Shown here: in pieces, positions 15,514 to 33,932 of the stretch
How positions within the stretch are numbered: position 1 is the stretch's first letter
How the letters are laid out: each line of letters opens with the position of its first letter
Origin: Escherichia coli
GTDB lineage: Bacteria > Pseudomonadota > Gammaproteobacteria > Enterobacterales > Enterobacteriaceae
Assembly: GCF_003334255.1 (NCBI RefSeq)
Contig: NZ_QOWU01000056.1
DNA: 38,759 nucleotides
Reading direction: 5' to 3' (one strand)
Program-made: the position numbers and the translations under genes
The notes under the pieces: model-generated
The model's database searches: none
Seen by the model: only the letters and a program-made list of their open reading frames with translations
Told to the model about the DNA's origin: nothing

Positions 15514-15529
15514 GTATACAGATCGTGCG

Positions 15530-15805
15530 ATCTACTGTGGATAACTCTGTCAGGAAGCTTGGATCAACCGGTAGTTATCCAAAGAACAACTGTTGTTCAG
15601 TTTTTGAGTTGTGTATAACCCCTCATTCTGATCCCAGCTTATACGGTCCAGGATCACCGATCATTCACAGTTAATGATCCTTTCCAGGTTGTTGATCTTA
15701 AAAGCCGGATCCTTGTTATCCACAGGGCAGTGCGATCCTAATAAGAGATCACAATAGAACAGATCTCTAAATAAATAGATCTTCTTTTTAATACCCAGGA
15801 TCCCA
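15530..15805. other. oriC: chromosomal replication origin oriC
   Basis: DnaA boxes R4 (15536..15544, TGTGGATAA), R3 (15575..15583, TTATCCAAA), R2 (15610..15618, TGTGTATAA), R5/M (15661..15669, TCATTCACA), R1 (15716..15724, TTATCCACA); three AT-rich 13-mers at 15738..15750, 15753..15765, 15769..15781; ~14 GATC sites in ~290 bp; BamHI site 15798..15803; mioC/gidA flanks. Confidence 0.97.
15738..15795. repeat. oriC DNA-unwinding element: three tandem 13-mers (GATCTnTTnTTTT family, here on minus strand) plus AT cluster
   Basis: CTAATAAGAGATC / AATAGAACAGATC / AAATAAATAGATC read directly from the sequence. Confidence 0.9.
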
Positions 15806-15891
15806 GGTCTTTCTCAAGCCGACAAAGTTGAGTAGAATCCACGGCCCGGGCTTCAATCCATTTTCATACCGCGTTATGCGAGGCAATCACC

Positions 15892-17781
15892 ATGTTTTAT
15901 CCGGATCCTTTTGACGTCATCATCATTGGCGGGGGTCATGCAGGCACCGAGGCCGCGATGGCCGCGGCGCGTATGGGTCAACAGACTCTGCTTTTGACAC
16001 ACAATATCGACACTCTGGGGCAGATGAGCTGCAACCCGGCGATCGGCGGTATTGGGAAGGGACATCTGGTAAAAGAAGTGGATGCACTCGGCGGTCTGAT
16101 GGCGAAAGCGATCGATCAGGCGGGTATCCAGTTTAGGATACTAAACGCAAGCAAAGGACCGGCGGTTCGCGCTACCCGAGCTCAGGCGGATCGTGTGCTC
16201 TACCGTCAGGCGGTACGTACGGCGCTGGAGAACCAACCGAACCTGATGATCTTCCAGCAGGCGGTTGAAGATCTTATTGTCGAAAACGATCGCGTGGTCG
16301 GTGCTGTTACCCAAATGGGACTGAAGTTCCGTGCCAAAGCCGTCGTGCTCACCGTTGGGACGTTCCTCGACGGTAAAATTCATATCGGTCTGGATAATTA
16401 CAGCGGTGGCCGTGCTGGTGATCCGCCGTCCATTCCGCTTTCTCGCCGTTTGCGTGAACTGCCGCTGCGCGTTGGTCGTCTGAAAACCGGGACACCACCG
16501 CGTATTGATGCTCGAACCATCGACTTTAGCGTACTGGCGCAACAGCATGGCGATAACCCAATGCCGGTATTCTCGTTTATGGGCAATGCGTCCCAGCATC
16601 CCCAGCAGGTGCCGTGTTATATCACTCATACCAACGAGAAAACCCATGATGTGATCCGCAGTAACCTCGATCGTAGCCCAATGTACGCAGGGGTGATCGA
16701 AGGTGTCGGCCCACGCTACTGCCCGTCGATCGAAGACAAAGTCATGCGCTTCGCCGACAGAAATCAGCATCAGATCTTCCTTGAACCGGAAGGACTGACC
16801 TCTAATGAAATTTATCCGAACGGTATCTCCACCAGCCTGCCGTTCGATGTGCAGATGCAAATCGTCCGCTCTATGCAGGGGATGGAAAACGCGAAGATCG
16901 TGCGTCCGGGTTATGCCATTGAGTATGACTTCTTCGATCCTCGCGACCTGAAACCGACGCTGGAGAGCAAGTTTATCCAGGGGCTGTTCTTTGCTGGTCA
17001 GATTAACGGCACTACCGGTTACGAAGAAGCCGCTGCGCAAGGTTTGCTGGCCGGTCTTAACGCTGCCCGTCTGTCTGCTGACAAAGAAGGTTGGGCTCCG
17101 GCACGTTCTCAGGCGTATCTCGGCGTACTAGTTGATGACCTGTGCACTTTAGGAACCAAAGAACCGTATCGTATGTTTACTTCGCGCGCAGAATATCGTC
17201 TGATGCTACGCGAAGATAATGCGGATCTGCGTTTGACTGAAATCGGTCGTGAACTGGGCCTGGTGGATGACGAACGTTGGGCGCGCTTTAACGAGAAACT
17301 TGAGAATATCGAGCATGAGCGTCAGCGTCTGAAATCGACCTGGGTAACCCCGTCGGCGGAAGCTGCAGCCGAAGTGAATGCTCACCTGACTGCGCCGCTT
17401 TCCCGTGAAGCCAGTGGTGAAGATCTGCTGCGTCGTCCGGAAATGACTTATGAAAAATTAACCACGCTGACGCCGTTTGCCCCTGCGTTGACAGACGAAC
17501 AGGCGGCGGAACAGGTTGAGATTCAGGTTAAATACGAAGGTTATATCGCGCGCCAGCAAGATGAGATCGAAAAGCAGCTGCGTAACGAGAACACCCTGCT
17601 ACCCGCGACACTGGATTACCGCCAGGTATCCGGTCTTTCTAACGAAGTGATCGCCAAACTTAACGATCACAAACCAGCCTCTATCGGCCAAGCTTCGCGT
17701 ATTTCTGGCGTCACGCCTGCGGCCATCTCCATTCTGCTGGTGTGGCTGAAAAAACAGGGTATGCTGCGTCGTAGCGCATAA
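15892..17781 (+). CDS. mnmG: tRNA uridine 5-carboxymethylaminomethyl modification enzyme MnmG (GidA)
   Basis: 629-aa ORF starting [22 protein letters not shown] (FAD-binding GxGxxG). Confidence 0.96.
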
Positions 17782-26028: not shown

Positions 26029-26324
26029 GTGTGACCCGTCCTGAATAGCGTTCACATAGATCCTGCTGATATAAAACCCCCCTGTTTTCCTGTTTATTCA
26101 TTGATCGAAATAAGAGCAAAAACATCCACCTGACGCTTAAATTAAGGTACTGCCTTAATTTTCTGCAGACAAAAGGCGTGACGATGGTCGAAAATGGCGC
26201 TTTCGTCAGCGGGGATAATCCGTTATTGAACAATTTATCCTCTGTCCATTTCACGATGAAAAAAATGTAGTTTTTTCAAGGTGAAGCGGTTTAAATTCGT
26301 TCTCAAATTACAGTCAGGACGCGT

Positions 26325-29981: not shown

Positions 29982-31040
<1,059 letters not shown>

Positions 31041-31048
31041 TAAAACTC

Positions 31049-31085
31049 CAGGCCGGGTACGGTGTTTTACGCCGCATCCGGCATT
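31049..31085 (-). repeat. REP (repetitive extragenic palindromic) element between pstS and pstC
   Basis: GGCCGGGTACGGTGTTTTACGCCGCATCCGGCA resembles the REP consensus in reverse orientation. Confidence 0.7.
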
Positions 31086-31123
31086 ACAAAATGACTTTGT
31101 AAACGCGTTTAACTGAAGAGTAA

Positions 31124-32976
<1,853 letters not shown>

Positions 32977-32994
32977 TATTGCTGACACGGTTTT

Positions 32995-33032
32995 CCCCTC
33001 ACCCTAACCCTCTCCCCAGAGGGGCGAGGGGA
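32995..33032. repeat. GC-rich imperfect palindrome (CCCTCACCCTAACCCTCTCCCCAGAGGGGCGAGGGGAC), possibly a boxC-type intergenic repeat
   Basis: Read from the sequence in the pstA-pstB spacer; family assignment is tentative and from memory. Confidence 0.35.
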
Positions 33033-33074
33033 CCGACCGAGCGCCTTTTTGACTCTGTACACGGTTAACACTTT

Positions 33075-33108
33075 GCCGGATGCGGCGTGAACGCCTGATC
33101 CGGCCTAC
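33075..33108 (+). repeat. REP element between pstA and pstB
   Basis: GCCGGATGCGGCGTGAACGCCTGATCCGGCCTAC is a near-canonical REP sequence. Confidence 0.85.
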
Positions 33109-33119
33109 GGTAAGCCTGA

Positions 33120-33932
<813 letters not shown>

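Follow-up and report, generated by a model that had tools for sequence, protein, structure and literature searches.

The pstA-pstB spacer of Escherichia coli: a probable stack of catalogued interspersed repeats with a polymorphic BoxC insertion at the pstA stop codon

BoxC is a dispersed intergenic repeat that numbers some 20-30 copies in an E. coli genome. It has since also been named the PIT element and the TMECO intrastrand-triplex motif (Holder et al., 2015, PMC4666352, who cite Bergler 1992 and Bachellier 1996; Hoyne et al., 2000). Holder et al. counted 23 TMECO motifs in MG1655, reported the motif in more than 260 genomes and saw no link to transposons, phages or plasmids; its copies are spread genome-wide without functional association (PMC4666352). 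The same authors presented in vitro evidence that TMECO forms an intrastrand triplex, for which the C-rich strand needs acidic pH (PMC4666352). One of their motifs, TMECO 19, is placed by their Supplementary Table S2 between pstB (128 nt off) and pstA (19 nt off) and is described as lying in the 'middle of operon pstS/C/A/B-phoU' (PMC4666352).

The second kind of repeat that bears on this locus is the REP element. We take the E. coli Y-type REP consensus to be an imperfect palindrome of about 34 nt, GCCGGATGCGGCGTGAACGCCTTATCCGGCCTAC, with an asymmetric CTAC tail, dispersed in hundreds of copies through a genome. REPs also occur inside transcribed operons, as in the classic cases of malE-malF and hisJ-hisQ, and pst is like these. 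REP hairpins are established 3'-exonuclease barriers (PMC6061677), and palindromes after pstS have been proposed to protect the pstS mRNA of E. coli from ribonucleases (PMC2605767, citing Aguena et al. 2002). These two sources, the latter for pstS, support the suggestion made by a sequence-only reading of the present DNA that REPs in operons stabilise upstream mRNA. A different effect was reported by Liang et al. (2015), as represented in PMC12306157: when fewer than 16 nt separate a REP from a stop codon, translation of the upstream gene is lowered.

We analysed a window of 38,759 nucleotides, the whole stretch of E. coli DNA under study (contig NZ_QOWU01000056.1). Gene order was mapped on the annotation of NZ_CP025859.1, which is 100% identical across a 351-bp pstA-pstB query. 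By this mapping, the whole stretch is E. coli chromosome around oriC, with the order yieP-mdtD-rbs-kup-ravA-asnA-mioC-(oriC)-mnmG-atp-glmUS-pstSCAB-phoU-bgl; the pst gene names are those that RefSeq gives to E. coli DNA that is identical or nearly so. On the annotated genome, the oriC slot (the mnmG-mioC gap) corresponds to about 15517-15894, some 17 kb from pst, and the direction of pst transcription is that of replication. The atpC-glmU spacer holds a full-length Rfam match to STnc410, an sRNA of enterobacteria (188 bits; 26084-26241, minus strand) that runs antisense to the direction of the flanking atpC and glmU genes. The features of the pst region are as follows.

30000-31040, plus strand: pstS (ORF list).
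31046-31088, minus strand: REP of the pstS-pstC spacer, somewhat degenerate (pattern scan, RNA fold).
31127-32086, plus strand: pstC (ORF list).
32086-32976, plus strand: pstA, with its stop codon TGA at 32974-32976 (ORF list; RefSeq annotation of matching genomes).
32967-32974, plus strand: left direct-repeat copy of ACACGGTT, at the end of pstA and also in empty alleles.
32975-33066, plus strand: BoxC-carrying 92-bp insertion, its placement ambiguous within the 8-bp repeat (coverage classes, filled/empty alignment).
32985-32992, plus strand: internal copy of ACACGGTT, within the left outer arm of BoxC.
32990-33044, plus strand: stretch of about 55 bp conserved among E. coli BoxC copies (alignment of nine copies).
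32994-33032, plus strand: BoxC/PIT/TMECO core, type A, the plus strand being the C-rich, mRNA-sense strand; blocks 32994-33004, loop TAA, 33008-33017, loop AGA, 33021-33032.
33059-33066, plus strand: right direct-repeat copy of ACACGGTT, resembling a target-site duplication.
33075-33108, plus strand: canonical Y-type REP with CTAC tail (33/34 consensus matches; RNA fold).
33110-33138, minus strand: putative decayed Z-type REP, tail-to-tail with the Y-type REP (consensus, Salmonella likeness, Rfam naRNA4).
33144-33161, plus strand: Shine-Dalgarno sequence (GAGGA) and ATG start of pstB, a stretch that outgroups keep and that the repeats leave intact.
33159-33932, plus strand: pstB (ORF list).

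We read the pstA-pstB spacer as three enterobacterial interspersed repeats of known kinds, stacked up stepwise, in which the REPs would serve as decay barriers and BoxC would be a near-neutral passenger; we put the probability of this reading at roughly 0.8. The spacer runs for 182 bp (32977-33158) from the end of pstA at 32976 to the start of pstB at 33159. The sequence-only reading had described within it a GC-rich imperfect palindrome followed by a canonical REP, and both are there, at 32994-33032 and 33075-33108; a third hairpin at 33110-33138 had been left out. The palindrome itself, which had been delimited as 32995-33032, is real, its two 11-nt arms (32994-33004 and 33022-33032) being complementary at 10 of 11 positions (91%). 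As a description of the segment, however, a palindrome falls short, since the sequence is a three-block motif with a core at about 32990-33044 that sits inside a 92-bp insertion. The motif, TCCCCTCACCC-TAA-CCCTCTCCCC-AGA-GGGGCGAGGGGA, consists of two pyrimidine blocks and one purine block separated by 3-nt loops and fits the E. coli consensus; the loop on the G-rich strand reads TTA and the copy is of type A. No match to its 25-mer core arose in 100 shuffles of the window. Judged by its motif, the GC-rich element is the BoxC repeat, and the pst copy is TMECO 19 of Holder et al. and hence already catalogued.

Its relatives are dispersed throughout the genome. A blastn search of 5426 complete E. 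coli genomes with positions 32975-33058 returned a median of 17 and a maximum of 29 places per genome, so that the segment is not unique to pst; uniqueness is what the sequence-only reading had named as the outcome that would count against it. E. coli copies for comparison were drawn from MG1655. The element recurs in the spacers fimH-gntP, tusA-zntA, tauD-hemB, adk-hemH, aaeR-tldD, frlR-yhfS, fabI-ycjD, yihR-yihS and yjdP-phnP, and a further one adjoins argE. When the pst copy was aligned with eight other E. coli copies, the nine shared a core of about 55 nt, (T)TTTCCCCTCACCCTAACCCTCTCCCCNNNGGGGCGAGGGGACYGTYCG, beyond which the flanks diverge. In its 37-nt three-block G/C-rich type A motif, its copy-number range and its intergenic place, the pst copy is the same as BoxC/TMECO as published and no different in kind. 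What the present comparison adds is that the 92-bp insertion is clean and has an 8-bp repeat on its flanks, that its absence is ancestral and that it changes the pstA stop codon.

Outside E. coli, the 21-mer CCCTCACCCYRRCCCTCTCCC is repeated many times in unrelated Proteobacteria and metagenome-assembled genomes (MAGs), always followed by its purine complement among the matches listed. The loci examined in Mitsuaria chitosanitabida hold at least 84 copies, and MAG GL140_5 holds at least 29, these within a conserved element of about 130 nt; further matches among those listed come from Contendobacter, Afipia, Hyphomicrobiales and Deltaproteobacteria MAGs. A motif of this exactness recurs in different bacterial classes, and its wide occurrence agrees with the count of more than 260 genomes given by Holder et al.

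The REP elements of the locus are of uneven preservation. The Y-type REP at 33075-33108 differs from the consensus that we assume at 1 of 34 positions, found no match in 100 shuffles of the window and, queried as 33072-33110, occupies at least 40 BLAST places in each of the 5426 genomes. With BoxC at a median of 17 places per genome, these counts bear out the earlier description of the spacer as a compound of dispersed repeats. The Y-type REP is extragenic yet transcribed, being situated past the pstA stop and before the pstB start within the pstSCAB-phoU unit. The REP that had also been noted between pstS and pstC is likewise present, at 31046-31088; it stands in inverted orientation, in which it reads GCCGGATGCGGCGTAAAACACCGTACCCGGCCTGG, and forms a hairpin of -21.4 kcal/mol.

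The third hairpin, whose paired arms the repeat search placed at 33114-33138, agrees in inverted orientation with the Z1 consensus, again as we assume it to read, at 24 of 29 positions; read directly, it agrees at 19 of the 29. It resembles the genuine REP that Salmonella carries at the same position (GTAGGCCTGATAAGCGTAGCGCCATCAGGCA, as against GTAAGCCTGATTAGCGAAGTGCATCAGGCA in empty E. coli alleles). The Rfam model naRNA4, a nucleoid-associated RNA that derives from a REP cluster, aligns below threshold at 33063-33105 (minus strand), 33074-33139 (plus strand) and 31051-31087 (plus strand), with E values from 0.00014 to 0.074; the second of these alignments spans both spacer REPs with E = 0.012, below the gathering score. 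Because of the Z1 match, the Salmonella resemblance and the naRNA4 alignment, we read the third hairpin as a decayed Z-type REP which, together with the Y-type REP, would make up a minimal BIME-like pair. The locus resembles REP and BIME systems in its textbook Y-type REP, its somewhat degenerate REP between pstS and pstC, and an inverted Z-like REP with which the Y-type REP may approximate a minimal BIME. It departs from such systems in that the Z-like member is by this reading decayed, is locus-specific by BLAST (median of 2 places with E values up to 10) and is joined to the tail of its partner by a single nucleotide. No Rfam family reached its gathering score in the pst region, and a match of Antizyme_FSE to BoxC (E = 1.1) is a chance match.

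The spacer between pstS and pstC (31041-31126) contains a stable palindrome just past pstS in every genome examined, and these palindromes are not homologous: E. coli has one REP, Salmonella two REPs, Klebsiella two REP-like palindromes and Citrobacter JGM124 a plain hairpin. Such a pattern suggests selection for structure over sequence.

All of these elements are predicted to fold stably as RNA. The BoxC hairpin has a folding energy of -27.5 kcal/mol (z = -2.5), the Y-type REP -20.8 kcal/mol (z = -3.64), the Z-like REP -13.2 kcal/mol (z = -3.4) and the pstS-pstC REP the energy given above (z = -3.93); for the whole pstA-pstB spacer, z = -3.73. The folding covered Watson-Crick pairs only. Judging from gene order, it is the C-rich form of BoxC that is present both in the pst mRNA and in the template of the lagging strand, and given the acidic pH that this strand requires for a triplex, plain hairpins are the likelier RNA structures.

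We considered whether the compound could be an intra-operon terminator or attenuator, or an internal promoter for pstB-phoU. Such a role is brought to mind by a run of five T residues (33046-33050) 3' of the BoxC hairpin, and BIMEs can attenuate transcription (Espeli et al. 2001, as cited in PMC6061677). The run, however, begins 6 nt beyond the end of the BoxC stem and is embedded in a loop in the fold of the full spacer; a consensus scan of 32977-33158 found neither a terminator-like nor a sigma-70 promoter-like site; and pstB and phoU still need expression from the operon. We therefore regard this explanation as very improbable. A canonical intrinsic terminator in particular was rejected, the scan being negative and the U tract not immediate to the hairpin.

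The BoxC segment is polymorphic among E. coli strains. We called a genome filled when it covered at least 80% of the 351-bp spacer query in a megablast search, and 2099 of the 5426 complete genomes (39%) were filled by this threshold; in the remaining genomes sampled, the query was matched in two pieces spanning 92 bp less. The BoxC insertion is missing in about 61% of the E. coli genomes sequenced. Aligned with each other, filled and empty alleles differ by a clean indel of 92 bp. Empty alleles read AATAAACACGGTTAACAC, and filled alleles read AATAA-ACACGGTT-GATATTGCTG-ACACGGTT-TTCCCC...GACTCTGT-ACACGGTT-AACAC. We assign the internal ACACGGTT to the left arm of BoxC because GCACGGTTTTCCCC occupies the corresponding position in the argE copy. 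The insertion opens with 11 nt, GATATTGCTGA, that are similar to GAGATTGCTGA, the sequence by which the argE and adk-hemH copies are extended on the left.

The insertion falls within the stop codon of pstA, which changes from TAA in empty to TGA in filled alleles; the T of the new stop codon comes from ancestral sequence and the GA from the insertion, and the PstA protein (...KNKHG) is unchanged. In the database, four PstA homologues are 403-514 aa long, two of them with ABC-transporter ATPase domains; these long homologues are either PstA-PstB read-through fusions or assembly or annotation errors.

The polarity of the indel can be read from four outgroups. Their pstA-pstB spacers measure 86 bp in Salmonella, 47 bp in Klebsiella, 46 bp in C. 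freundii and 45 bp in Citrobacter sp. JGM124; BoxC is absent from this spacer in all four, and in each pstA ends ...AAACACGGTTAA, with the TAA stop of the empty allele. Outgroups that lack BoxC and carry TAA make the empty state ancestral and the insertion derived, and on this comparison the first event at pst is a gain. The inserted segment is at least 99% identical in 1965 records (84-bp query), a near-identity that points to a recent insertion. It is found on at least two flanking haplotypes, one like that of the window and O157 and one like that of K-12. We also searched for an intermediate allele in which pstA is joined directly to the BoxC core, and the best matches were the normal filled allele in two pieces.

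An alternative account, following Holder et al., takes the polymorphism as instability: BoxC DNA would form a triplex that stalls replication, deletion between the 8-bp repeats would recur, and many empty alleles would be secondary precise deletions. Holder et al. link the motif to instability and report that the TMECO 19 region in 56 genomes was unchanged in 20, lacked the motif in 9 and was mutated in 27 (PMC4666352). Loss of this kind would leave no trace, as a deletion between the ACACGGTT copies would restore the ancestral sequence exactly and be indistinguishable from it by sequence, so that some empty alleles may be secondary. Within the motif, the pst BoxC copy of GF66.1 lacks 12 bp (ACCCTAACCCTC) between two CCCTC repeats, a slippage deletion which indicates that the BoxC motif does decay. 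The four empty outgroups with TAA argue, however, that at least the first event was an insertion, and it is the C-rich strand, whose triplex requires acidic pH (Holder et al., PMC4666352), that has mRNA sense and serves as the lagging template. Instability as the explanation of the polymorphism is accordingly, in our estimate, unlikely.

How the segment arrived is a separate question. With a mobile element of the MITE kind the insertion has in common that it is short and non-coding, belongs to a dispersed family and has on its flanks an 8-bp direct repeat that resembles a target-site duplication. Unlike in MITEs, the 'duplicated' 8-mer ACACGGTT recurs inside the element. A repeat search of the spacer found no inverted repeats at the insertion ends, those within the insertion being internal and chiefly the BoxC arms. 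To our knowledge, BoxC has no cognate transposase. At other BoxC sites, moreover, the alleles differ in another way. At adk-hemH and at tauD-hemB the BoxC allele, present in full length in 2915 and 3601 of the 5426 genomes, respectively, alternates with a different, plain-hairpin allele, and beside argE, where 285 of the 5426 genomes have BoxC, it alternates with a REP allele. At these three sites the whole intergenic segment is replaced, without a simple indel and without duplication. We rejected the interpretation of the pst copy as a MITE on the grounds that it has no terminal inverted repeats and that clean indels are missing at adk-hemH, tauD-hemB and argE.

The 8-mer at the target site, ACACGGTT, is the same as the one internal to the element, an identity for which we estimate a chance of about 0.1% per given 8-mer within about 90 bp. 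That such an identity is improbable by chance hints at a microhomology-based insertion, and a possible donor would carry GATATTGCTGACACGGTT. A bolder version of this idea would have BoxC mobile now or recently, and not merely unstable, with the pst copy as an insertion caught in the act through microhomology or template switch, and with the series of filled and empty alleles able to shift the stoichiometry of PstA, PstB and PhoU and the set point of the Pho regulon between lineages; we hold this extended proposal to be quite doubtful.

The insertion also alters the distance between the stop codon and the nearest hairpins. In empty alleles the Y-type REP starts 6 nt past the pstA stop, and in filled alleles it starts 98 nt past the stop, with the BoxC hairpin about 11 nt past it. 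Under the 16-nt rule, this shift in REP distance could make filled and empty alleles differ in PstA output, so that the neutrality of the BoxC insertion is putative. The same rule touches the pstS-pstC REP, whose RNA hairpin begins 11 nt past the pstS stop: PstS would be lowered and not raised, which tempers the suggestion of the sequence-only reading that REPs contribute to a high ratio of PstS to PstCAB. Any such link can concern the pstS-pstC REP only, and not the pstA-pstB compound.

These distances are also the starting point for an explanation by selection, in which the BoxC insertion would be a regulatory change that retunes PstA translation or the ratio of pstSCA to pstB-phoU mRNA. A stable hairpin of -27.5 kcal/mol close to the pstA stop, a REP that in empty alleles stands 6 nt past TAA, within the range of less than 16 nt reported in PMC12306157 to lower translation, and an allele common enough to reach 39% of genomes speak for it. 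The near-invariant sequence of the insertion, however, fits a recent origin as well as it fits selection, BoxC copies across the genome are free of functional association in the account of Holder et al. (PMC4666352), and other BoxC slots are equally polymorphic. We consider a selected change unlikely. Since most E. coli genomes (about 61%) and the four outgroups do without the BoxC copy, it is not a required part of pst regulation, and we read it as a near-neutral passenger with no pst-specific role.

Taken together, the stepwise stacking of known repeats that we prefer would have proceeded as follows. The locus would have begun with a short spacer of about 46 bp, as in Klebsiella and Citrobacter. 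A Z-type REP would then have been gained at the position common to Salmonella and E. coli, and would have decayed in E. coli, where a Y-type REP would later have been added tail-to-tail with it. Finally, as the comparison with the outgroups shows, a subset of E. coli gained the 92-bp BoxC segment exactly at the pstA stop, with duplication of ACACGGTT and conversion of TAA to TGA. As operon transcription crosses the spacer, each of the three elements would form a hairpin in the RNA. Those of the REPs probably serve as decay barriers in pst: by blocking 3'-to-5' exonucleases they would let decay intermediates that end there (pstSCA, and pstS in the case of the pstS-pstC spacer) persist longer than the sequence downstream. 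BoxC would be one more stable hairpin.

The three catalogued repeats, one BoxC and two REP hairpins by our reading, are selfish-looking, and the finding is real but ordinary. The kinds of element and the BoxC copy were already known, and the earlier interpretation of the spacer is partly supported. The new details are minor: the clean insertion with its 8-bp repeat, its polarity, the stop codon change, the decayed second REP as we read it and the allele frequencies. They nevertheless correct a possible misreading, in that the presence and absence of BoxC at pst reflect an insertion on an ancestral empty site and not simply instability or deletion. With both filled and empty alleles common, E. 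coli offers a natural experiment on whether a stop-proximal hairpin or REP affects expression within pst, an operon that sets the Pho-regulon signal.
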